Shown here one piece after another: positions 29 through 14,907 of a stretch of DNA of 17,709 nucleotides. Both the position numbers and the translations under genes were made by a program. The notes under the pieces were generated by a model that saw only the letters and a program-made list of their open reading frames with translations, had not been told where the DNA came from and made no database searches. Origin of the DNA: Candidatus Baldrarchaeum yapensis (lineage in GTDB: Archaea; Asgardarchaeota; Baldrarchaeia; Baldrarchaeales; Baldrarchaeaceae); NCBI GenBank assembly GCA_016840465.1, contig JAEOSH010000048.1, positions 1 through 17,709 of the forward strand, in the 5' to 3' direction. Every line of letters starts with the position of its first letter. Position 1 is the first letter of the stretch.

Positions 29-949
29 CTAGTAAACAAAGGTCAACCAGTGAAGGTACCTCTCATCTCTACCTCTTACAACATCGAAGAACTTCCTCTG
101 GAGCGCCCTCGTCACGAGACCCGGCTTTCCGTCCCCTATCTTCCTCCCATCTATTTCGACCACCGGCGTCACCTCGGCAGCGGTCCCCGTGAAGAACACC
201 TCATCTGCGCCGTAAAGTTCGGTCTTCGTGATGTCCTTTTCGACAACTTCGTATCCCATGTCTCTCGCGAGTGTCATGACGGTATCCCTAGTTACTCCCA
301 CGAGTATACTGGCATGTACGGGCGGCGTGTATATTTTTCCATCCTTTACCACGAATATGTTCTCTCCGCTCCCTTCCGAGACGAATCCCCTGTGATCCAG
401 GAGTATTGCCTCGTTGGCTCCCCGCTCGACAGCCTCCATCTTCGCGAGATAACTGTTAGTGTAGTGGCCCGAAACCTTCGCCATCATCGGAAGCATGTTA
501 GGCGCGGGTTTCACCCAGCTGGAAGTGATGACTCTCGCCCCCTCCTCCAGCGCCTTTCCGAGGTAGGCTCCCCACCTCCACGCCATTATTGCGACGTTCA
601 CAGGAGCGTCCTTGGGGTATACATCCATGCTACCGAAGCCCTTGTAGACAAGGGGGCGGATGTAGCAGTCTTCGAACTCGTTTGCCCGAACCACCTCTAT
701 GCACGCCCTCATTATTTCCTCCTTGGTGTAAGGGATCTCCATCTTGTACACGCCCGCCGAGAAGAATAGCCTGTCTATGTGCTCCTTAAGCCTGAATATT
801 GCAGGCCCGTTCTCCGTTTTGTAGCAACGTATTCCCTCGAAGACCGCCGAGCCGTAATGGAGTGCATGCACCATAATGTGGACCTTTGCGTTTTCCCAGG
901 GCACCAACTCGCCATCCATCCAGACATATTTTGATCTCAATTCCATCAT
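29..949 (-). CDS. ilvE: Branched-chain amino acid aminotransferase (fold type IV PLP enzyme)
   Basis: Motifs ALHYGSAVFEGIRCY, YIRP, KVSGHYTNSYLAKMEA, EGSGENIF, LVGVTR, EVFFTGTAAEVTPV. Start moved from the ORF-track 985 to ATG ATG at 949/946 (MMELRSKYVWMDG), which follows GGAAGTGA. Confidence 0.95.
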   Translation of the reverse strand: MMELRSKYVWMDGELVPWENAKVHIMVHALHYGSAVFEGIRCYKTENGPAIFRLKEHIDRLFFSAGVYKMEIPYTKEEIMRACIEVVRANEFEDCYIRPLVYKGFGSMDVYPKDAPVNVAIMAWRWGAYLGKALEEGARVITSSWVKPAPNMLPMMAKVSGHYTNSYLAKMEAVERGANEAILLDHRGFVSEGSGENIFVVKDGKIYTPPVHASILVGVTRDTVMTLARDMGYEVVEKDITKTELYGADEVFFTGTAAEVTPVVEIDGRKIGDGKPGLVTRALQRKFFDVVRGRDERYLHWLTFVY

Positions 950-1055
950 ACTGATCACTTCCACCATGCCATAATCTGCGTACAATCAAGCGAGCAACAA
1001 ATATGACGCCATATACTGGTACTCTATCCCACAAAAAACGAGTATATGTAATTTC

Positions 1056-1075
1056 TGGGCAACATGATGTGCCTA
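1056..1075. promoter_or_regulatory. Imperfect palindrome TGGGCA-N8-TGCCTA, candidate Tar-like operator upstream of ilvE
   Basis: Halves are 5/6 self-complementary with an 8-nt spacer; 9/12 match to TGGACA-N8-TGTCCA. On the minus strand it is followed by GAAA and a weak TATA-like TTACATAT (1051-1044). Confidence 0.5.
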
Positions 1076-3669: not shown

Positions 3670-4470
3670 TTATCTGCTCCTACTAAGGTTCTCCCTCAGA
3701 TTCTTAAGCAACGATGAGAGTTCATGAATGTTCTTAACCGCATCTAAAAGCTGGCATGCAAAGTTAAGAAACTTCCTAATCGCAACACGCGAATGCCGAC
3801 TATTCAGCAGTGAAAACACAAGTTCATCGCTATCATCCAGTATCTCCCTCGTGTGGGAAATTAGTCTCTTAAATGAGGGGCCTGCAAACTTTTCGAGTTT
3901 CCTCACACCCTCCCTACAGACAAAATACCCATAGAGCAACCCTATGAAGTATGGGAGCGCTATCGTTACTGCAACCGTCCGATCGTGAAACTCGGGATCT
4001 GCTATCACAATATCAGCGCCCAAAAGGCTAAATAAATCTATTACGAACTTGCAGTCCTCGCATCTTCCGTCCACCGGGATGACCACGATTTTTCGAGACT
4101 TGAAACTGTCTGCAGTCCTCCCAAAGAGGGGATGTACACTACACACCTTGACGCTTTTCGGAAATTTCTTGAGTACGGGAATTATGCTCCCCTTCAGTGA
4201 CGCTATGTCGATTATTATCTTCCCCCTCAGTCCACGCCTCTGAACGATTTCACGAACATCCTCTAGAACCTCGGAGGTTACGTCTATCGGCGTCGCAATG
4301 AGTATGACATCACTGTTCACCACAAGATCCTCCAGCGTTGAGTACACGACCCCCCAGAAATCCTTGACCTTCGAGGGATCTATGTCATAGACACCGATTT
4401 CAAAGTGATCCTTAAGTTTCTCTGCAAACCATCTGCCCATTCTCCCGTATCCCACGATTCCCAGCCTCAT
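3670..4470 (-). CDS. tyrA: Prephenate (or arogenate) dehydrogenase, no ACT domain
   Basis: Rossmann GIVGYGRMG, DIASLKG, SVHPLFG; last gene of the aro operon; SD GGTGA 4 nt before ATG. Confidence 0.9.
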   Translation of the reverse strand: MRLGIVGYGRMGRWFAEKLKDHFEIGVYDIDPSKVKDFWGVVYSTLEDLVVNSDVILIATPIDVTSEVLEDVREIVQRRGLRGKIIIDIASLKGSIIPVLKKFPKSVKVCSVHPLFGRTADSFKSRKIVVIPVDGRCEDCKFVIDLFSLLGADIVIADPEFHDRTVAVTIALPYFIGLLYGYFVCREGVRKLEKFAGPSFKRLISHTREILDDSDELVFSLLNSRHSRVAIRKFLNFACQLLDAVKNIHELSSLLKNLRENLSRSR

Positions 4471-4474
4471 GCGA

Positions 4475-5536
4475 TCACCGTCCGCTACATTCCTCCGCGA
4501 CCATGTTCATTCTCCTGAACGCCTCCTCCAATCTATCAGATACGAGTGATACCCTTACGAACTGCTTGTAATTTCCAAACGCCTCTCCCGGAAATACGCT
4601 GACACCCTGCTTGAGCAGTTTATATGTGAATTCGGTTCCCGAGATTCCAGCCTTAATCTTAGGAAATATGTATATTGCGCCATCCGGCTCCACAAACTCG
4701 AAGAACTTCCTGCCAAGCGTTTTCTTCGCTGCTTCAACCCTCCTCTTATAAATGTCGGATACTATTCTCCTGACTTCATCGATTACCTCGAGGGCCTTGA
4801 GGGCCGCCGCCTGTACAAATCCGGGAACGCACGTCACGGTGGCCTCTATGAACCTCTGGATTTTCTTGATGATCTCCCTGTTCGCGATAGCGAAGCCTAT
4901 TCGAAAGCCCGTCATGCTGAACGTCTTCGAAAAACTGTGCACGAACACTCCCTTTTCATAGTTGAAGTCAAGTATTGAGGAGAACCTCGAGTTGAATAGA
5001 ATGTCCCTGTAAACCTCATCCGATACGACGGTGATTCCCCTTTCAGACGCTACATCTAGGAGCTCTCTCATCTTGCTCCGTGGAAGTGCGACACCCGTCG
5101 GATTGTTCGGATAGTTTATGATCACGAGATCGACCTCGTCATCCATTTCGGTAAAGTCCGGAACCCATCTGCCCTCCATCGAGGTCTCCAAGACCTGAAT
5201 CTTCTTGCCGAAAAGAGATGCCATATGGACGTATGCGGGCCAGAAAGGTGCAATAACCGCAATCTTTCTCGAAAAGAACACCTGCGACGCTATTAGGAGT
5301 TTCGATCCCGGCGATATTATTACCTCTTCCGCGTCAACATCATATAGTTCCGCGATCCTTTCCCGCAACTCCCTTATTCCAACCGTGGAGACGTACTCCG
5401 TCTCGCCCCTCCTGATGGAGTCGAACATTGCCCCGATGATTCTCTCATCGACCCTGATGTCCGGTTGCCCCGCGTCTAGCCTTATCTCAACATCGGACTC
5501 GGATAGCTTGTTGAAAAACTCGTAGACGTTAAACAA
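4475..5536 (-). CDS. Class I/II PLP aminotransferase (AspC-like, likely aromatic aminotransferase)
   Basis: NYPNNPTG, SDEVY, SFSKTFSMTGFRIG motifs; TTG start abutting the chorismate mutase stop. Confidence 0.9.
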   Translation of the reverse strand: MFNVYEFFNKLSESDVEIRLDAGQPDIRVDERIIGAMFDSIRRGETEYVSTVGIRELRERIAELYDVDAEEVIISPGSKLLIASQVFFSRKIAVIAPFWPAYVHMASLFGKKIQVLETSMEGRWVPDFTEMDDEVDLVIINYPNNPTGVALPRSKMRELLDVASERGITVVSDEVYRDILFNSRFSSILDFNYEKGVFVHSFSKTFSMTGFRIGFAIANREIIKKIQRFIEATVTCVPGFVQAAALKALEVIDEVRRIVSDIYKRRVEAAKKTLGRKFFEFVEPDGAIYIFPKIKAGISGTEFTYKLLKQGVSVFPGEAFGNYKQFVRVSLVSDRLEEAFRRMNMVAEECSGR

Positions 5537-5779
5537 TCACCCATCACCCTGTAACCTTATCGACAGCCTCAAAATCTCCCTAAAAACGTCCCTGTAGATT
5601 CCTGCCCTTCGTAAAACGTGCTCCTCCCTCTTCGGGTCTCTGATGTCCAACCCTATCCTCCTCTTCAACTCCCTGATCTCCCTCACAAGCTTCATCCTCC
5701 TATCGAGCAATCTTATTATCTCCTCGTCTATCCTGTCGATCTCCCGCCTGAGCTCCAGTATCCTCTCCAACTCAACCAC
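5537..5779 (-). CDS. aroQ: Monofunctional chorismate mutase (AroQ class)
   Basis: LRREIDRIDEEIIRLLDRRMKL...IRDPKREEHVL signature. Start is GTG 5779, or TTG 5770 after SD GAGGTG. Confidence 0.9.
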   Translation of the reverse strand: MVELERILELRREIDRIDEEIIRLLDRRMKLVREIRELKRRIGLDIRDPKREEHVLRRAGIYRDVFREILRLSIRLQGDG

Positions 5780-6834
5780 CTCAGGAGGTGATCCGTCAAA
5801 ACTATCGCGAAAACCGCCTCTACGACTGGCACTGCCCGTATCGCGATACAGGTATCAAACCTCCCCCTCAGTTTCAAATCTACCTCTCTCATCTCCCGGA
5901 GATTCACGCTCCTCTGCGGTTTCAGGATGGACGGCGTGGGCTTTATCACAACTCTGAACCTTATAGGTGCACCGTTGCTCATTCCCCCGAGTATTCCACC
6001 TGCATTATTCGTTCTGAACTCCACCCTCCCATCCCTAACTGTAAGCTGATCGTTGGCCTCGCTCCCCCTCATTTGTGCGAGTCTGAATCCCGCCCCGAAT
6101 TCTATGCCCTTGACTGCCGGTATCACGAACATCGCCTTTGCAAGATCCCCGTCTAAGGTATCTATCGGGGGCTCCCCGAGACCCACCGGGACGTTAAGCG
6201 CCACCGCCTCGATGATCCCCCCGATACTATCCCCCTCATTCTTAATATCGCGCAAAAGGTCTACTATTCCTCTGGAAGCTTCCAGGTCCGGGCATGCAAC
6301 TGGGCTCTTGGGGAGGTTTTCCCTAATTTCCTCAAGAGTCATGTCTTCCCTCATGCGGACGTTTCCTATTTGAAAAACGTACGCCAGTACCTCTATTCCG
6401 AATTTTTCGAGAACTTTCTTTGCAATAGACCCTGCGGCAACAAGCGCGGCCGTTATTCTACCCGAGAAGATCCCCCCACCCCTATAATCGTTGAAACCGA
6501 AGTACTTAATTCTGGCAACATAATCCGCGTGTCCCGGCCTCGGAATGTCCTTTATCTTCTCGTAGGGTGCGGAGTCGACGTCTCGATTCCATACGACTAT
6601 TGTTATGGGCGCGCCCGTTGTCCGCCCGTTGAAGACCCCGGATAGGATTGTAAAATCGTCCTCTTCATCCCTAGGACTGGAGAACTCGTCCTTTCCGGGC
6701 CTCCTCCTCTCGAGATCTCTCCTTATGTCGTCGGGGTTCACCTCTATTCCGGGAGGGCATCCCTCTATCACGGCGCCCACGCATTTCCCGTGGCTCTCTC
6801 CGAATATCGAGACCCTGAACGCCTTCCCTATCAT
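5728..6834 (-). CDS. aroC: Chorismate synthase
   Basis: FGESHG, PRPGHAD, RGGG, GDSIGG, IPAVKGIEFGAG, NNAGGILGGMSNG, KPTPSI; ATGA overlap with aroA. Confidence 0.97.
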   Translation of the reverse strand: MIGKAFRVSIFGESHGKCVGAVIEGCPPGIEVNPDDIRRDLERRRPGKDEFSSPRDEEDDFTILSGVFNGRTTGAPITIVVWNRDVDSAPYEKIKDIPRPGHADYVARIKYFGFNDYRGGGIFSGRITAALVAAGSIAKKVLEKFGIEVLAYVFQIGNVRMREDMTLEEIRENLPKSPVACPDLEASRGIVDLLRDIKNEGDSIGGIIEAVALNVPVGLGEPPIDTLDGDLAKAMFVIPAVKGIEFGAGFRLAQMRGSEANDQLTVRDGRVEFRTNNAGGILGGMSNGAPIRFRVVIKPTPSILKPQRSVNLREMREVDLKLRGRFDTCIAIRAVPVVEAVFAIVLTDHLLRWLSWRGYWSSGGRSTG

Positions 6835-8087
6835 TGGAACTCGACCCTCCCGCCGATTCTCATAAGATCGTTAAAGAACGCGGGATAGGAGTCCTGCACA
6901 CAATCTACTCCTAGGATCTTGCTCTCGCCCCTCGCACCCAGCGCCGCGATTACAAGCGCCATCGCTATCCTGTGATCCCCATATGAGTCCAGAACCGCAC
7001 CCCTTAACTCCCTATGCCCTTTGATTACGAGTCCATCTTCTCTTTCCTTAACATTTACTCCCATTCTTTTCAGGTTATCGGCGATCGCGCGTAACCTATC
7101 CGATTCCTTGTATCTGAGGTGATCAGCACCCGAAATTATTGTTGTTCCCCTAGCATAGGCGCCTAGGACGGATATTACGGGAACAAGATCTGGCGCGTCA
7201 CTGCAGTTCACATGTATTCCCTCTAGGTCTCCCCGGGATACTTCAATCACCTCCCCATGGATCTTGACATCCGCACCCATTTGACAGAGGACGTCGAGTA
7301 TCATCCGGTCCCCTTGGACGTCCCTCGGATCTAGGCCCCGCACCCTCACCTTGCCGTGCAAGGCTCCCGCCGCAAGTATGAACGCCGCAGAGGAATAGTC
7401 ACCCGGGATTTTGAACGTGGTGGGTATCGGGTTTTGCCTTTCGACGGAGAACCTCCTGTAATCTTCCCTATGTACCGATAGACCGAACCTCCTCATGGAC
7501 TTTATCGTTATATCCAGATAGGGACGCGACTTCGGCTCCGAAATGATCTCGATCTCGAGGCCCACCTTTGGCGCAACGATTAGGAGGGCCGTAATGAATT
7601 GTGATGAAACATCGCCTCTTACCTTCAAAGTACGGGACTTTATCTTGTCCCTTCCGCCTCGGACGAGTATGGGAAGTCTCCCCCCTTCGGAAAATTCCAC
7701 CTCTATTCCCATTTGAGACAGTGCCTCGATCATCGGAGACATAGGTCTCCTCCTTAAGGATGCGGACCCGTCTATCACCGTGGTTCCGTCAACTAGGGCG
7801 GCAATTGCCATTGAAATCCTCGCGGTGGTTCCCGAGTTTCCGCACCAGATGACATCTTTTGGCTGGACGGGATCTCCAACTCCGATAATCCTTTCCCAAG
7901 ACGCGTCAGCGCCGAACTCTCGTATCGCGCCCATGCTTGCCTCTGTGTCATTCGATATGAGGGGGTTCACTAATCTGGACTCTCCCTCCGCGAGCAGGGA
8001 AAGAAATAGAGCCCTGTGGGTGTAGCTCTTAGATGGCGGGGCCCTGACCTCCCCGCTTATTTCAGATGGGACGACCCTAACGTTCAC
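6831..8087 (-). CDS. aroA: EPSP synthase
   Basis: PPSKSYTHRAL, GNSGTT, RPM, SSQFITAL, GDYSSAAF, KESDRL, DHRIAM. Start moved to GTG 8087, 5 nt after SD GAGGTGA. Confidence 0.97.
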   Translation of the reverse strand: MNVRVVPSEISGEVRAPPSKSYTHRALFLSLLAEGESRLVNPLISNDTEASMGAIREFGADASWERIIGVGDPVQPKDVIWCGNSGTTARISMAIAALVDGTTVIDGSASLRRRPMSPMIEALSQMGIEVEFSEGGRLPILVRGGRDKIKSRTLKVRGDVSSQFITALLIVAPKVGLEIEIISEPKSRPYLDITIKSMRRFGLSVHREDYRRFSVERQNPIPTTFKIPGDYSSAAFILAAGALHGKVRVRGLDPRDVQGDRMILDVLCQMGADVKIHGEVIEVSRGDLEGIHVNCSDAPDLVPVISVLGAYARGTTIISGADHLRYKESDRLRAIADNLKRMGVNVKEREDGLVIKGHRELRGAVLDSYGDHRIAMALVIAALGARGESKILGVDCVQDSYPAFFNDLMRIGGRVEFQ

Positions 8088-8092
8088 GGTTA

Positions 8093-8932
8093 TCACCTCG
8101 TCTCCGTGATGATTATCCTCTCGGCATCCTCCCTCTCCTCCCAAACTTCCCTTACCCCTTCCGGATCCTCGGTGACCGCTACAACAGCTGGCCCGGTCCC
8201 CGAAACTGCCGCCGCGATTGCGCCCGCCTTTAAGGCTTCAAATATCGGGCTCGTGTCATATCCCAGTAAGGCCGCATAAAGAATTCCGTTTATTACCATT
8301 GCCTCCCTCCACTTTCCGGCAAGCGCCAATTTGAACGCCTCTTCCACGTAGGGTGCCACTATTTTGAAGTTTACACCCTTGAGGGACCCCTTGCTGACCC
8401 TCTTCCTCGGCACAAGTATCACGACTGGCAGTCGATCAACCTCCTCCCGCTTGATCAATTCCGTATTGATGTTATCGGTGATGCACAAACCTCCTAGGAG
8501 GGAGGCGCACGCATCGTCGAACGCTCCCGTTATGGTAACACCAGCGACCTTTGCGGCCTCCACTCCGAGTTTTATTACCTCTAAGGGATCGAGTTTCTCC
8601 CCGATGGCATCTAAAACTGCGGATACTAGGGCGTTTGCTGCCGCGCTGCTACTTTTAAGTCCTCTCGATATTGGAATTTCCGAGCGGATGAATACTCTCA
8701 ACCCTCCCTCTATTCCAAATTTGCGAAACATGACCTCCTTGACGGCCCTCACAAGATCAAAATCACATACTTCCTCCGTCCCATCAATTCGAATTTCCCC
8801 CTCAATGACATCCTCATCAACTATTTCAATGTGTGCCTCCGTCCTCAGTTTTATTCCAATTGCTGCACCTTTTCCGGTGGCTATCGCGTTTATTACCGTG
8901 ATCGCACCGTAGGCTTCACCCTTCCCCCTCAT
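8093..8932 (-). CDS. aroK: Archaeal (GHMP-family) shikimate kinase
   Basis: GAITVINAIATGKGAAIGI, IPISRGLKSSSAAAN, TGAFDDA, SGTGPA. Confidence 0.95.
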   Translation of the reverse strand: MRGKGEAYGAITVINAIATGKGAAIGIKLRTEAHIEIVDEDVIEGEIRIDGTEEVCDFDLVRAVKEVMFRKFGIEGGLRVFIRSEIPISRGLKSSSAAANALVSAVLDAIGEKLDPLEVIKLGVEAAKVAGVTITGAFDDACASLLGGLCITDNINTELIKREEVDRLPVVILVPRKRVSKGSLKGVNFKIVAPYVEEAFKLALAGKWREAMVINGILYAALLGYDTSPIFEALKAGAIAAAVSGTGPAVVAVTEDPEGVREVWEEREDAERIIITETR

Positions 8933-9791
8933 TTTCCTCCACCCCTAATGCTTTCAGTGCCGCATTTCTCATAATTCGAATATCGGGATAGTGCCCTGTC
9001 CAGAGTTTAAAGCTCTCTGCCCCCTGGAGAACCAGCATCCACAACCCGTCTATCGTTGTACATCCCGCTTTCATGGCGTCCCTGAGAAGTTTAGTATGCA
9101 ACGGCCTGTAAACTATGTCGAAGACCACCAATCCGGGTCTTAGCAAGTGTTCCGGCACCAAACTCTCATTCGACTCCATGCCCACCGATGTGGCGTTTAT
9201 CAGAATGTCCGCATCTCTCAGTTCGTTCTCGAGATTCCTTACGCTCAGCCGCATTCCACGAACTGTTGAGCCGTTATTTGCAAGGTTTCTGGCGAGATTT
9301 ACCGCCTTTTCTTCGGTTCTGTTCAGAATTGCGAGTTCGGAAACCCTGCCGGAAAGGGTATACGCAATCGCCCTTGCGGCCCCTCCAGCTCCGAGCAACA
9401 CCACTTTTTTCCCATCCACGTCGGTGAACATCTCAAGGGATTTCAATGCGCCCACACCGTCGGTGTTGTAACCCTTAAGTGTCCCACCTTCGTTGACGAT
9501 CGTGTTTACCGCACCTATCTTCCGAGCGTCCTCCGATACCTCATCCAGATACTTCACAACCTCTATTTTGTGGGGCATCGTCACGTTTGCTCCCCCTATA
9601 CCCAACGATCTGATCCCCTCAACCGCCTTTCCGAGGTCTTGCGGCTCAACCTCGAATGCCACGTACACGAAGTTCAGGTTAAGGGCTCTTATGGCGGCGT
9701 TGTGCATTACCGGGCTCAGCGAGTGCCTCACAGGTTTTCCTATCAGGCATAAAACCCTAGTGCTCGCATCTATTATTGCAAGACCCTCCAA
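8916..9791 (-). CDS. aroE: Shikimate dehydrogenase
   Basis: HSLSPVMHN, NVTMPHK, GAVNT, NTDGVG, GAGGAARA, NATSVGM, DGLWMLVLQGA. Start is TTG 9791 or ATA 9776. Confidence 0.96.
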   Translation of the reverse strand: MEGLAIIDASTRVLCLIGKPVRHSLSPVMHNAAIRALNLNFVYVAFEVEPQDLGKAVEGIRSLGIGGANVTMPHKIEVVKYLDEVSEDARKIGAVNTIVNEGGTLKGYNTDGVGALKSLEMFTDVDGKKVVLLGAGGAARAIAYTLSGRVSELAILNRTEEKAVNLARNLANNGSTVRGMRLSVRNLENELRDADILINATSVGMESNESLVPEHLLRPGLVVFDIVYRPLHTKLLRDAMKAGCTTIDGLWMLVLQGAESFKLWTGHYPDIRIMRNAALKALGVEENEGEG

Positions 9792-10432
9792 ACGCTCCTC
9801 ACCTCATCAACCGTCAGTTGCCCACTGGCGGTTTCCTTCCCCCTCGATACGGATGCGTATGTAAATGGAGCACCAAAAAGCGGCGCGAGTATCCTGGAGA
9901 TCCTACCCAGATCCCCCATGCAGAATGCAACGGTTGGTATGTTCTTTGGCTCGGCAACCAGCCTCAGAGCGATAATGTTATCCTCCATCCTACGGGCATA
10001 CGTTACTATTTTTGCAATGTCGGCACCACTTCCGGCAATGGCGTCCCGTATTTTCACCAGCTCTTCGAAAGGGGGCGTTTTCTCGAAATCGTGATGGGAA
10101 ACTATGACTTTAACTCCATGCCTCCTCGCAAGGCGTATGACATCATCGCGAATGTCCGAATTCAGTTCTATATCAATGTACCGTGGTTTTATCTTTATAA
10201 ACCGCCTAAACGCTTCAAACCTCTCCCTTTCGCTTCCGGTGAAGGCCCCACCCTCTTTCGCCGTCCTGATGGTAATTATAAGCTTGTCGGAAAACTCTCT
10301 CAGAGAGTCAAACCCATTGAAGTCCTGCAGGAAGTCCGCGCGGATCTCAATAAGATCCGCCTTTTCACCCACACTTTCCACATCTGCGATGGCTTCCTTG
10401 ATTGTTTTCGCCTTCACACATGCGACTATCAA
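9773..10432 (-). CDS. aroD: Type I 3-dehydroquinate dehydratase
   Basis: EIRADFL, TIRTAKEGG, YIDIEL, SHHDFEKTP, IAKIV, MGDLGRISR, ASGQL. Start moved to TTG 10432 (TTGA overlap with the aroB stop, after GGAGGT). Confidence 0.95.
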   Translation of the reverse strand: MIVACVKAKTIKEAIADVESVGEKADLIEIRADFLQDFNGFDSLREFSDKLIITIRTAKEGGAFTGSERERFEAFRRFIKIKPRYIDIELNSDIRDDVIRLARRHGVKVIVSHHDFEKTPPFEELVKIRDAIAGSGADIAKIVTYARRMEDNIIALRLVAEPKNIPTVAFCMGDLGRISRILAPLFGAPFTYASVSRGKETASGQLTVDEVRSVWRVLQ

Positions 10433-11481
10433 TTTGCAACCTCCGTCAACGCCTCGAGGATCAAATCTTCCGGTACCTCCATTATTCTCACGGATCCTAT
10501 CCTCTCCGGCAAAATCATGACCTGCCTTCCATACCACGCCTTTTTATCGACCTTTATTGCCTCCATTATCCTCTTCGGGTCCAAGTTGTGCCTCGTGGGC
10601 AACCCCAAGGTTTCTAAGAGCCCAATCACCCTGTCCGTTTCCCTGAAGCCCAATAGTTTCTCGGCAATTAGGCAACACACGACGATGCCCACCGACACCG
10701 CGAACCCATGCTTTATCCGGTAGTTCGATGCACTCTCTATCCCGTGTCCGATCGTATGCCCGAGGTTTAGAATCCTCCGTTTGTCAGACTCTCTAAGGTC
10801 CTCCTCGACGACCTGCACTTTCAACATCACACATCTCTTGACAATATTTGTTACAATGTCCTTATCTTGCGCGAGCACCGCTCTTGCGTTTTCTTCCAGG
10901 TACTCGAAGAAGTTTCTGTCCATTATGATGCCGTACTTCGCAACTTCCGCCAGTCCGTTCAGGTACTCTTCCCGCGGAAGCGTTTGCAGAGTCTGGGGGT
11001 CTATCAGAACGACGTTTGGGGGATAGAACGTTCCAATGATGTTCTTGCCTATGAAGTTTACGCCCGTCTTACCCCCGATTGCGGCATCCACCTGGGCCAT
11101 GAGGGTTGTGGGGATGAGGATCAAAAGTATCCCGCGCATGTACGTCGAGGCGACGAACCCCGCGAGATCGGTTATGACGCCGCCGCCCAAACCTATGAGT
11201 AGGCTTTTCCTCGTAAACCCATTTTTTATCATCTTACTCCATATCTCGATCGCTGTCTCTATGCTCTTTGCGTCCTCTCCATCCCTTACTAAAAATAGAG
11301 AGATGTCGCCGTCAAGGGATTGAAGTACGGCGTCTAACCAGAATTTCGCGACGACGTCGTTTGTCAGGACTCCCACCTTGAACGGAGAAAGTTCATCGAC
11401 CCATCCGCGTAGATCGCCGAGACTGTTCCATCCTATCACTATTTTCCCCACTATTGCCGACTCTATTACCTCGGTATCCAT
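10429..11481 (-). CDS. aroB: 3-dehydroquinate synthase
   Basis: [56 protein letters not shown]. Confidence 0.97.
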
Positions 11482-12263
11482 CTCCTTACCTCCGAAATAA
11501 GTCTTCTGAAGTCCTCGAATGTGAGGCTCTGGGGGCCATCGGATAGAGCCTCTGAGGGATTGGGGTGCACCTCCACCATTATCCCATCGGCACCAACAGC
11601 GGCCGCTGCCCTCGCCAATGGGATTACGAGGCTTCTCTTCCCGGCGGCATGAGATGGGTCCACAATCACGGGAAGATGGCTCAGTTCCTTAACCACGGGA
11701 ACCGCCGATATGTCGAGGGTGAACCTCGTCGACGGCTCAAAAGTTCTTATTCCCCTCTCGCACAGGATCACGTTCTCGTTTCCCTCGAGCATTATGTACT
11801 CGGCGGCAAGCAGCCACTCCTCAATGGTGGATGAAAATCCCCTTTTCAGCAGCACAGGCATTTTTCTCTTTCCGACTTCCCTGAGCAACGGTGTATTCTG
11901 CATATTTCTGGCGCCTATCTGCAACATGTCCGCGTACTTTGCAACGAGATCCACATGTCTGGTATCGAGAACTTCCGTAACAACGGGCAATCCGGTCTCA
12001 TCACTCGCTTCCCTAAGCCATTTCAGTGCTTCCTCACCGAGTCCTTGGAAGGAGTATGGCGACGTCCGAGGCTTGAAAGCCCCTCCCCTCAGCATGTCGG
12101 CGCCCACTTCCTTTAGGAACCTTGCGGTTTCCAGGATCTGCTCCCTGCTCTCCACCGAGCACGGTCCCGCTATTATTACGAAATCCTCGCCTATCTTTCG
12201 TCCCCCCACTTCTACCACGGTTTTTTCGCGATGTTCCTTACTTGTAAGCTTGAACTTCTTCAT
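11466..12263 (-). CDS. aroF: DAHP synthase class I-beta, catalytic barrel only
   Basis: [59 protein letters not shown]. Start is ATG 12263 (ATGA overlap with transketolase beta), giving 265 aa. Confidence 0.96.
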
Positions 12264-13195
12264 TTCACCACCTCCTCCGCCGCTCTCACTATACTTTCGA
12301 TGTCGAGACCGTAGTGTTTGAGAAGAGATACGTAGTTCCGCGAGCACGTTCCGAAGGTATCCCTGATGCCGACCCTCTTCATGCGAACCGGGTACTCTTC
12401 GGAAATCTCCTCCAAAATTGCGCTTCCCAGTCCCCCGAAGATGTTGTGCTCCTCTACCGCTACAAATGCGCCGGTGCGACTCGCCATATTTATGAGTGTC
12501 CTCCTATCGAGGGGCTTAATTGTGTGCACGTCGATAACAGCGGCGTTTATGCCTCTTTTCTTCAGAATTTTCGCTGCATGAAGGGCCATCGCCGTCATGA
12601 CCCCACATGCCGCTATGCAAACATCATCGCCGTCCTCAAGGCGATTTATCTTTCCCATTTTTATCTCGGATTCGTCCTCGTAAACTCTTGGGGCGTAATC
12701 TCTGCCTATTCTCATATATGCGGGCCCATGCCTCTGGAAAATTTCGAAAAGGAGTTTTCTGGTGGAGACAGCATCGGCAGGCACCACGACGTTCATGTTT
12801 GGGATGACCCTCATGATCGCAATATCCTCCAGCGACTGATGGGAGGAACCGTCAAGATAATCGGATAATCCGGCATGTGTGGCAACAAATTTCACATTAA
12901 GGCGGTCCCGCGCAACCGTATTGCGTATCTGTTCCCAAGCTCTCATAAGGAACATTGAGAATGCGGACACTAGAGGGAGTTTCCCTGCAATTGCGAGGCC
13001 CGCGGCGGTTCCAACGAGGTCCTGTTCACTGATCCCAACTTGGATGAACCTGTGGGGGAACCTTTCGGCGAACTTCTTGGTCATCGTGGAGCGCGCAACG
13101 TCGGCGTCCAGTACGACGAGGTGTTCCAGTTTCTCACCCAGCTCTAATAACGCCTCGGCAAACGCTCCCCTGTAGCTTTCCACCGTGAAGTTCAC
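12260..13195 (-). CDS. Transketolase, C-terminal (beta) subunit
   Basis: [55 protein letters not shown]. Confidence 0.95.
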
Positions 13196-14307
13196 TAGCC
13201 CTCACCCGTATGGGCAATTATTACCTTCGGCGCGCCCCTCACCCTTTCCGCCTTCATTAACGCATCCAGAATTTGCCCGTGATCATGCCCATCTACCTCG
13301 AAGACCTCCCAGCCAAACACCTTCCACCTCTCACGGAGCGGCTCCTTCGACTTTATGCCCTCGGTGGGACCATTGAGCTGGCTTCCGTTCCTATCCACGA
13401 TCGCAATTACATTATCCAGCCGGTAATGGGCGGCGGTCATGGCGGCCTCCCATATTTGTCCCTCGTCAAGCTCTCCATCCCCGAGTATCACGTAAACGTT
13501 CTTTCGCACACCATCCATCTTTGACGCCAGAGCAATGCCGTTCGCTACCGATAACCCTTGACCCAGAGACCCCGTGGAGACCGCAACCAAGGGAACCCCT
13601 CTTTTTGCGTGCGTCGGCAGTTTAGATCCGAGGTCTCCGAACGTTTTGAGGTCATCATCTTTTATGAATCCAAACTCCGCAAGTATGACGTAAAGCGCCG
13701 GGACGCAGTGCCCCTTGCTCAGGATCAGAACATTGTCGTCCGGTTTGGCGTTATCCAGGATGAACCACTTCGTGAGCAGGACTAGCAGTATGTCCAGCAC
13801 GGATAGCGACGAGCCGAGGTGCCAGTTTCCAACAGGTTTTAGAACCTCCCTCAGCCTCTGCTTGAGCTTCCACGACAACTCTCTGAGATGCACACTAATA
13901 GCCGCGGAGATATCTTCCGGTTTTTGACAGGAGATCTGATGGACATCCAGGACTCTTACCTCGTTCTGGCAATCAACTTTCCCATTCATATCGGCGCTAC
14001 AGCCCATCCGACCGCAGTCGTGCCTGTACTCACAACAGCCTTTGTCATTTTCGGATGCCGAGATGAGCGCGAGAACAAGTCTGCCCAATTCGGTGATCTC
14101 CACGTTCTTGGGCGCGTTTTTGCTACCATAGTCTATTAGTCCCAGGTCTTTTAGTATTTTGGCGTTCAGTTTCAGGGTCGATGGAGAAATCGAGTACTTC
14201 TCCGAGAGGTACGAGACAAGGGAGTTCAGGGAGGAAAACTTTCCGTCCGCGTGCGAGAGAATCAGAATCTGTTTCTCGTTGAGGGCCCTGCGCAGAAGTC
14301 TACCCAT
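13195..14307 (-). CDS. Fusion: winged-helix regulator (Tar-like) + Cys-rich linker + transketolase N-terminal (alpha) subunit
   Basis: aa 1-84 wHTH-like (SLNSLVSYLSEKYSISPSTLKLNAKILKDLGLIDY...VEITELGRLVL); aa ~85-135 linker with 6 Cys; aa ~136-370 transketolase (HLGSSLS, LSKGH, STGSLGQG, TPP motif GDGELDEG...IVDRN). The frame stays open to 14382, so the true start may be further upstream. Confidence 0.85.
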   Translation of the reverse strand: MGRLLRRALNEKQILILSHADGKFSSLNSLVSYLSEKYSISPSTLKLNAKILKDLGLIDYGSKNAPKNVEITELGRLVLALISASENDKGCCEYRHDCGRMGCSADMNGKVDCQNEVRVLDVHQISCQKPEDISAAISVHLRELSWKLKQRLREVLKPVGNWHLGSSLSVLDILLVLLTKWFILDNAKPDDNVLILSKGHCVPALYVILAEFGFIKDDDLKTFGDLGSKLPTHAKRGVPLVAVSTGSLGQGLSVANGIALASKMDGVRKNVYVILGDGELDEGQIWEAAMTAAHYRLDNVIAIVDRNGSQLNGPTEGIKSKEPLRERWKVFGWEVFEVDGHDHGQILDALMKAERVRGAPKVIIAHTGEG

Positions 14308-14342
14308 TCCGGCCGCGTTGGGCTTTCTACGGATGATGTTTA

Positions 14343-14378
14343 TTAACTCCTCGGTAATGGATATTGGCAGAACAACAT
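14343..14378 (-). other. SD-led 11-codon uORF MLFCQYPLPRS, or the frameshifted true start of the fusion gene
   Basis: GAGGTGA (14389-14383) + 4 nt + ATG, the same spacing as tyrA and the 17199 gene, but out of frame with the downstream ORF. Confidence 0.5.
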
Positions 14379-14428
14379 CGCCTCACCTCAGCTCTTGTAG
14401 GACCCTTTCTCATCATTTCACCCTTCCA

Positions 14429-14461
14429 TTTTAAAGTCTGACGGGCAACTTTACCTATCCA
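14429..14461 (-). promoter_or_regulatory. Putative aro operon promoter: Tar-like box TGGATA-N8-TGCCCG (14461-14442) + 6 nt + TATA box TTTAAAA (14435-14429)
   Basis: Directly read from the sequence; 9/12 match to TGGACA-N8-TGTCCA with exact spacer; correct orientation and distance to the SD. Confidence 0.6.
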
Positions 14462-14652
14462 CGAGCGTGAGAAGAAGACCGCTACGCCCTGCCTCGTGTT
14501 CCAAATGTTTCAGCGAAGTTTCAAGCGTTGTCCCGTGTATCCCGCCCGTTCACATCATGAGGACAGTTATCGCACTATGCTTTTCAAGTATCGCCTTTAA
14601 ACCGAAGTCAATCCCGCTCACATCCGGTATCTGCATCTGCATTAGCCTCCTG

Positions 14653-14907
14653 CTACCATAACAACTCAAGCCTCCGCTCATCTCTCCTCCGCTCCCTGTA
14701 CAACTCCCTTAGCGCCTTATCGGCAATATCGGAAGATACCGGTTTGCATGCCTCCAGCAATAACCGAGGGTTCTTCCTTCTCCTGTACATGAGAAGGAAC
14801 CAGATCGCCTCGTCGAGGGTGACCCTCCTTCCCAGCTTTATCTGTAACTCCGACACGATCCTCAACAGCTCCCTCTTAACCTCCTCACCGATGAGAATCA
14901 CAGCCAT
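14653..14907 (-). CDS. VapB-type antitoxin-like protein, no toxin downstream
   Basis: MAVILIGEEVKRELLRIVSELQIKLGRRVTLDEAIWFLL...ALRELYRERRRDE resembles crenarchaeal VapB; SD GAGGT present. Confidence 0.65.
   Translation of the reverse strand: MAVILIGEEVKRELLRIVSELQIKLGRRVTLDEAIWFLLMYRRRKNPRLLLEACKPVSSDIADKALRELYRERRRDERRLELLW

Follow-up and report, generated by a model that had tools for sequence, protein, structure and literature searches.

Does the aromatic amino-acid biosynthesis (aro) operon of Candidatus Baldrarchaeum yapensis, an archaeon outside the Thermococcales, carry at its promoter an operator for the activator Tar, and is this operator read by the Tar homologue encoded in the first gene of the same operon? 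The stretch of DNA that we analysed, hereafter the window, is 17,709 nt of one contig, for which an initial annotation had proposed a Tar-like site directly upstream of the aro TATA box. In Thermococcus kodakarensis, Tar binds TGGACA-N8-TGTCCA upstream of the BRE/TATA of three promoters with a Kd of 5-10 nM (PMC6737238), and it activates all three in vitro (PMC6737238, Yamamoto et al., 2019). Its gene, TK0271, is itself part of the aro operon, and the probe for the aro promoter was taken from the region before TK0271; related boxes in other Thermococcales were already reported in 2019, and archaeal activators typically sit upstream of the BRE/TATA (PMC6737238). The consensus given in the initial annotation agrees with this published one (PMC6737238).

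The sequence, coordinates, consensus agreement and spacer length given for the site all read as annotated. On the minus strand it runs through the half-site TGGATA (14461-14456), the spacer ggtaaagt (14455-14448) and the half-site TGCCCG (14447-14442), followed by tcagac (14441-14436) and TTTAAAAT (14435-14428). The candidate Tar-type box thus spans 14442..14461 (minus strand), with two half-sites that agree with the consensus at nine of 12 positions and an exactly 8-nt spacer, GGTAAAGT. The box is symmetrical at only 3/6 of its dyad positions, and the terminal base, G, occurs in none of 24 Thermococcales boxes. The 6-nt gap TCAGAC (14436..14441, minus strand) occupies the position of the TFB-recognition element (BRE) and makes a poor one. 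Next comes the TATA box TTTAAAAT at 14428..14435 (minus strand), which consists of TTTAAAA at 14435-14429 extended to 14428 and aligns with TTTAAATA, TTTAAAAA or CTTAAATA at the same position in all related promoters. Because the order of box, TATA, leader and Tar domain is conserved across lineages, 14428-14435 can be taken as the working TATA box, and from this we infer a transcription start near 14405 (14402..14408, minus strand), at the usual archaeal spacing of ~23-24 nt from the TATA-box end and in agreement with the start expected in the initial annotation. The box would then lie about 37 to 56 nt upstream of the start and abuts the weak BRE and TTTAAAAT; a BRE this weak may make the promoter activator-dependent. 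According to the window's ORF list the box falls in a non-coding interval, and an Rfam scan of 14200-14750 gave no match, the only signal being a sub-threshold snoRNA-like one of 16.5 bits (cut-off 60). A second TATA-like sequence, TTAATAAA at 14339-14346, is unlikely to be the main promoter: it coincides with the region where the conserved leader frame has its double stop, and the order of TATA and leader at 14428-14435 is the one that matches all relatives.

The first gene of the operon (13195-14307, minus strand) encodes a protein of 370 aa in which a Tar homologue is joined to the N-terminal half of a transketolase. The Tar-like winged-helix domain, the presumed binder of the box, comprises residues 1-87 (14047..14307, minus strand) and has 50-57% identity with Thermococcales Tar; it is continued in frame by a linker and the N-terminal half of transketolase (13195..14046, minus strand; Pfam PF00456, E = 1.4e-32). 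A profile HMM recognised the window's own domain at E = 3e-50, and in a word-seeded search this domain matched Thermococcus Tar homologues at E = 1e-17. The recognition helix PSTLKLNAKILKD (residues 42-54) is identical to that of the Thermococcus Tar homologues L023 and L041, as is the segment STLKLNAKILKDLGLIDYG, relative to which the T. kodakarensis type has only K/R and D/E exchanges. No significant family was returned when the Tar domain was compared with Pfam and with PDB sequences. Its AlphaFold2 model is a winged helix (pLDDT 92.9) closest to MarR-family folds (TM-score 0.6-0.7); it shares with MarR-family regulators, e.g. ST1710 of Sulfolobus tokodaii (PDB 3gfi), a similar fold and the expected dimer on a dyad, but its sequence is not significantly similar to theirs, and most MarR proteins act as repressors that are released by ligands. 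The gene and its promoter are found in identical form on at least eight independent metagenome contigs, which argues that the fusion is not an assembly error. In all, 15 contigs carry the fusion gene, and the eight copies that were aligned are all identical, so that within-species variation is nil. We also considered whether the in-frame N-terminal extension at 14382-14308 was an assembly frameshift and rejected this, as eight independent assemblies are identical there.

A word-seeded search found no fused relatives, which turned out to be misleading, as an exhaustive HMM search recovered six fusion lineages. These Tar-transketolase fusions of uncultured archaea (P0006, P0007, P0009, P0011, P0013 and P0015) each head an aro operon; P0009 joins the Tar-like domain to a full-length transketolase, the others to the N-terminal half. 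The window Tar domain is 41-45% identical to those of its fusion relatives, versus 50-57% to free-standing Thermococcales Tar. Being closer to the latter, the window fusion may be of separate origin, with more than one fusion event.

By its agreement with the consensus, the box does not stand out. Sites with at most three mismatches number 636 in the 2.27-Mb genome, about one per 3.6 kb, and six were observed in the window versus five expected. Nine of 12 positions and the 8-nt spacer are therefore, by themselves, at chance level, and do not furnish the independent support for Tar for which they had been taken. The degenerate form TGGAYA-N8-TGYCCR was not enriched in the organism's own genome either (five matches versus four in the control). 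We then scored the site with a weight matrix made from 24 distinct Thermococcales aro-promoter boxes, in an oriented and a symmetrised version, with the window site kept out of the training set; the boxes derive from Tar homologues detected by profile search in 31 of 99 Thermococcales genomes and from additional contig-scan loci. The window site obtained 13.15 bits (oriented) and 13.95 bits (symmetrised), of which a part could reflect inheritance, the training boxes coming from homologous promoters. This is far above all other sites in the window, the runner-up having 4.5 bits. Among the 4.53 million strand positions of the genome, only 12 (oriented) or 6 (symmetrised) reach the score of the window site, i.e. 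about 1-3 per million positions, and the site ranks fourth in 2.27 Mb when positions are counted by site. The validated T. kodakarensis trp operator got 11.6 and 12.5 bits with the same matrix, below the window site. Under leave-one-out scoring the training boxes range from 10.9 to 25.6 bits; the window site falls inside this range and below 21 of the 24 boxes. The chance of such a score 3-7 nt upstream of the window TATA box is about 1e-5. Judged by this independent matrix, the putative operator is more than a chance match, and the comparison of the site with background that had been suggested as a check thus speaks in its favour. There is no genome-wide enrichment of such scores, as the 12 and 6 positions compare with 15 and 8 in the reversed-genome control; the T. 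kodakarensis genome is not enriched either (two sites with at most one mismatch versus three in the control), and none is expected when a regulon consists of only one to three promoters. Seven other top-scoring matrix matches in the genome (C64:28199, C62:744, C9:19414, C1:44140, C67:64530, C96:25795 and C37:8450) lie within long ORFs and were taken as chance occurrences. A further one, C59:17910, is intergenic and lies 10 nt from a TATA-like box.

It is the comparison with relatives, the matrix included, on which the case for the site depends. In Thermococcales, each of the 24 distinct Tar-aro promoters, among them the one in the T. kodakarensis probe that was bound by Tar, has its box 4 nt upstream of the TATA box; these boxes deviate from the consensus by one to five mismatches, so that a three-mismatch box is typical, and the TATA boxes are TTTAAATA-like. 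The published aro EMSA primers are identical to L027, L053 and L056, and the 213-bp amplicon includes TGGACAGGCAAACCTGGCGA, ATAG and TTTAAATA. The trp probe sPTK0252 reads TGGACA-CCTCAGCA-TGTCCA, AAGC, CTTATATC, and the genome of L053 also carries the exact trp operator of this probe (TGGACACCTCAGCATGTCCA, AAGC, CTTATATC). In six other fusion lineages, too, the promoter has a box that is separated by ~5 nt from a TATA box: TGGACATGTATACATGCCCG, ATAGG and CTTAAATA in L070; TGGCCCACGAAAGCTGTCCA, GTACC and TTTAAATA in L072; AGGTTATGTTCACCTGTCCA with the uncertain gap CTATA and uncertain TATA box TTTTTAAA in L073; AGGGCAGGCTGTCATGTCCA, GAATA and TTTAAAAA in L074; TGGGCAGCCCGGGCTGCCCA, ACAGA and CTAAAATA in L075 (ACAGAC before TAAAATA); and TGGTCAAACTGGATTGCCCA, AAAAC and TTTAAATA in L077. 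Like the window, these loci combine Tar fused to transketolase with a box, a TATA box and a leader containing aromatic codons. The window shares the half-site TGCCCG with L070 and the gap pentamer CAGAC with L075, and its box is closest to the Thermococcales aro boxes, being identical at 17 of 20 positions to that of locus L061, TGGATAGGAACAGTTGCCCA. Allowing for TATA boundaries that are uncertain by ~1 nt, the gap between box and TATA ranges from 4 nt at the validated trp site, through ~5 nt for the fusion lineages and two Micrarchaeota loci, to 6 nt in the window. Across these loci the order of box, TATA, Shine-Dalgarno with aromatic mini-frame, and Tar domain is conserved and the remaining promoter DNA is unalignable, while the Tar domains of the lineages that keep this order are about 45-60% diverged. 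Such a layout, preserved amid unalignable flanks and diverged Tar domains, points to selection on the box and not to mere shared ancestry. A second conserved element, GGACNNNTGTTTGTCAnANnGACA, which has a small palindrome, was seen about 100-150 nt upstream of the Tar box in the Thermococcus loci L025, L027, L046, L048, L051 and L053; it is absent from the window.

Taken together with a score above that of the trp operator and a recognition helix that is kept, the recurrence of this layout in 24 of 24 Thermococcales promoters and six fusion lineages bears out the annotation of a Tar-type operator at the aro promoter, as far as sequence comparison can tell. The window box is very probably the expected regulatory site of the known Tar type and not a new kind of element. 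With the Tar operator it has in common the dyad of two hexamers, the 8-nt spacer and, apart from the length of the gap, the place directly upstream of the BRE/TATA, and with the T. kodakarensis system the aro operon and a first gene encoding a Tar-family regulator with a conserved recognition helix. It differs in the half-sites, TGGATA and TGCCCG, which have three mismatches and the terminal G, in the 6-nt instead of 4-nt gap to TATA, in the fusion of the regulator to the transketolase N-half and in a host outside Thermococcales.

Downstream of the fusion gene, the rest of the operon under the window promoter extends over 3670..13195 (minus strand; ORFs and Pfam). The genes of the operon, which places the box at the promoter of aromatic amino-acid biosynthesis, encode transketolase N and C halves, DAHP synthase, DHQ synthase, DHQase, shikimate dehydrogenase, a shikimate kinase-like protein, EPSP synthase, chorismate synthase, an aminotransferase and prephenate dehydrogenase, the aroB-aroC genes being within the operon. 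The GC content of the aro operon (3670-14307) is 51.7%, versus 44.7% for its flanks and 43.6% for the native trp operon, and toxin-antitoxin and PaREP1 genes neighbour it on either side. Its DAHP synthase shares 69-73% of residues with Thermococcales enzymes versus at most 67% in the phylum sample, and has no match in four class relatives. Tar itself was found in none of the four other genomes of the host class, which comprises five genomes, and in none of 399 other sampled genomes of the phylum. Based on the absence of Tar from the class and phylum samples, the GC contrast and the affinity of the DAHP synthase, the aro operon and its control region look horizontally acquired; box, TATA box and aromatic-codon leader would have arrived in this non-Thermococcales archaeon as one transferred unit. 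The Tar regulon of the window's organism seems to consist of this one acquired operon. Whereas the Tar regulon of T. kodakarensis has boxes at aro, trp and tyr-phe, around the promoter of the native trp operon (contig C51, 14891-21373) no box exceeds 9 bits, and this operon does not belong to the regulon; the tyrosine-branch genes are inside the aro operon itself, and prephenate dehydratase (PF00800) was not found in the 96%-complete genome. The enrichment of sites upstream of aro, trp and tyr genes that had been proposed as a check is hence not there, with the trp operon lacking a box and the 12 genomic positions set against 15 in the reversed control.

The explanation that we favour, with a probability of about three in four, has the fused Tar domain bound to the dyad at 14442-14461, most likely as a dimer, and assisting TBP and TFB at a promoter whose BRE is poor, which would result in positive autoregulation. 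The MarR-like winged-helix domain of the fusion protein would contact both half-sites as a dimer, which the dyad and the MarR-like fold suggest, and its binding would promote loading of TBP and TFB and thereby raise transcription of the whole aro operon. As the regulator is the first gene of its own operon, such a loop would amount to positive autoregulation. Autoregulation by the fusion protein had been put forward before; it does appear to follow from the gene order, but as an idea it was already implied by the presence of TK0271 at the Tar-activated aro promoter (PMC6737238). Of the activator-like position that had been described, the placement directly upstream of TATA stands, but the gap is 6 nt, where Thermococcales promoters invariably have 4 nt. 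With two more base pairs, the bound protein would be rotated by about 70 degrees with respect to TBP and TFB.

Activation from this position has precedents in Ptr2 of Methanocaldococcus jannaschii and TFB-RF1 of Pyrococcus furiosus, which are activators bound upstream of the BRE/TATA. The window arrangement, with its site just 5′ of a weak BRE/TATA and presumed recruitment of TBP and TFB, resembles theirs in the mode of action only, since Ptr2 and TFB-RF1 belong to protein families unrelated to Tar and have different site sequences.

A transferred operon may also bring along a box that no longer works, in which case the promoter would be constitutive or controlled by the leader and the Tar domain would have another role or none. 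In line with such a relic are the score near the bottom of the training range, the dyad symmetry of 3/6 and the unusual terminal G, as well as a gap 2 nt longer than in any Thermococcales promoter and the lack of a box at the other aromatic operons of the genome, and the aligned copies have no sequence variation from which constraint could be read. Yet box, TATA and leader unit have kept their order although the Tar domain has diverged by about 45% from Thermococcales and the flanks cannot be aligned; the recognition helix is fully conserved, and the other fusion lineages keep their boxes at gaps of about 5 nt. We therefore regard a dead site as unlikely.

A second reader of the box, acting instead of or together with the fused Tar domain, might be supplied by another gene of the same genome. 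Contig C81 encodes (7797-8198, plus strand) a second Tar-like winged-helix protein, which is 41% identical over 62 residues and has the helix ESTVKWNLRKLRDMGLI. Upstream of this gene, at 7712-7731 (plus strand), there is a box, TAGGCAACTCATGTTATCCA, followed by AAAG and the TATA-like AATTAAGTATA; a Shine-Dalgarno sequence and an ATG that is out of frame with the long ORF open a short frame, MSGGEYW... Class relatives carry genes homologous to this paralogue with TATA-adjacent dyads, e.g. TCGGTAAATATTTTTACCTA. In the window itself, a box TAGGCACATCATGTTGCCCA at 1056-1075 (minus strand), with GAAA and the TATA-like TTACATATA, lies upstream of a class IV aminotransferase gene (ilvE; 29-985, minus strand). 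Its half-sites score 14.9 bits versus 10.6 bits for those of the aro box, but it has another type of spacer and is similar to the box of the C81 paralogue. That the paralogue has a Tar-like box before its own gene, sharing the half-site TATCCA/TGGATA with the aro box, that a similar box precedes ilvE in the window and that same-class relatives have paralogues with TATA-adjacent dyads would all fit recognition of the aro box by the paralogue. However, the recognition helices differ (ESTVKWNLRKLRDMGLI in the paralogue versus PSTLKLNAKILKDLGLI), the C81-type boxes depart from the aro box in having a spacer of their own in common (TCATGT) as well as a gap of 4 nt, and the aro box is most similar to Thermococcales aro boxes (17/20 to L061), so that we consider a part for the paralogue at the aro promoter quite improbable.

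Much the same can be said, with still less in its favour, of a genuine Tar site that represses or limits transcription. Here the two extra base pairs would bring the bound protein into conflict with TFB and TBP, and the fusion protein would regulate itself negatively. The gap is indeed unlike the geometry validated for activation, and the folds closest to the Tar domain are those of MarR-like winged-helix proteins, many of which are repressors. But the weak BRE fits a promoter in need of activation, and the site lies wholly upstream of the BRE/TATA, the typical position of archaeal activators (PMC6737238), which makes repression very unlikely. Least credible of all is a chance match without function: sites with nine of 12 positions do occur once per 3.6 kb and six times in the window, with no genome-wide enrichment, but a matrix score this good 3-7 nt upstream of the window TATA has a chance of about 1e-5, and all related promoters show the same arrangement.

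Binding by the fused Tar domain may not be the only layer of control at this promoter. Between the TATA box and the Tar domain lies a leader (14343..14389, minus strand) with the Shine-Dalgarno sequence GAGGTGA at 14389-14383 and an 11-codon frame, ATG...TAA, at 14378-14343, which encodes MLFCQYPLPRS and contains the conserved CAA-TAT (Gln-Tyr). A homologous unit is present at the same place in all 37 distinct related loci, with a pattern of Shine-Dalgarno, ATG, two codons, CAA and a Phe, Trp or Tyr codon (consensus Met-Pro/Ser-x-Gln-Phe/Trp/Tyr). In each of 54 units from the 37 distinct loci (L023-L032, L041-L068 and L070-L077) the mini-frame is one base out of phase with the Tar frame. Distances from unit to Tar, 45-105 nt, are all multiples of 3, and no stop interrupts the Tar frame between the unit and the domain. 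The aromatic codon has a conserved third base, while the Tar-frame residue that overlaps this codon varies (F/L/S after Tyr units, D/E/G after Trp units). This, together with the open Tar frame, makes both frames, the mini-frame and Tar, appear to be under selection. Seven Thermococcales loci (L024, L043, L047, L049, L050, L054 and L058) have no ATG, GTG or TTG in the Tar frame between the upstream stop and the domain, and in L057 such codons occur in this frame only upstream of the TATA box, so that eight Thermococcales loci are without a usable start; in these eight, it is the out-of-phase mini-frame that comes with an ATG and a Shine-Dalgarno sequence. In L053 and T. kodakarensis, the reverse EMSA primer of 2019 ends 11 nt into the annotated TK0271 frame. 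The annotated TK0271 ATG there is the A-TG-G of the leader CAA-TGG (Gln-Trp), so that the start of Tar as annotated shares bases with the third leader unit, read in another frame. Recoding, a non-AUG start at an overlapping ATA or ATT, and termination-reinitiation are possible explanations for the phase offset. One may speculate that the box is the transcriptional half of a two-layer switch, in which synthesis of Tar might need ribosomes to get past, or to change frame at, an aromatic codon, so that shortage of any single one of Phe, Trp and Tyr would set the level of Tar and the box would amplify it via positive autoregulation. We put this forward tentatively, as an idea that is less likely than not.

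What seems new here is a Tar box outside Thermococcales, a fused regulator and a slightly longer spacing to TATA; our literature search found no paper on a Tar-transketolase fusion or on Tar boxes outside Thermococcales. An experimentally defined archaeal activator-operator pair would thereby be extended beyond Thermococcales, to another phylum, to a transferred operon and to a regulator fused to an enzyme of the pathway. The natural box-TATA spacings of 4, 5 and 6 nt could show how an archaeal activator contacts TBP and TFB. And in the window the putative activator is joined to the half-enzyme whose product is erythrose 4-phosphate; in T. kodakarensis, Tar comes off its DNA in response to this compound.
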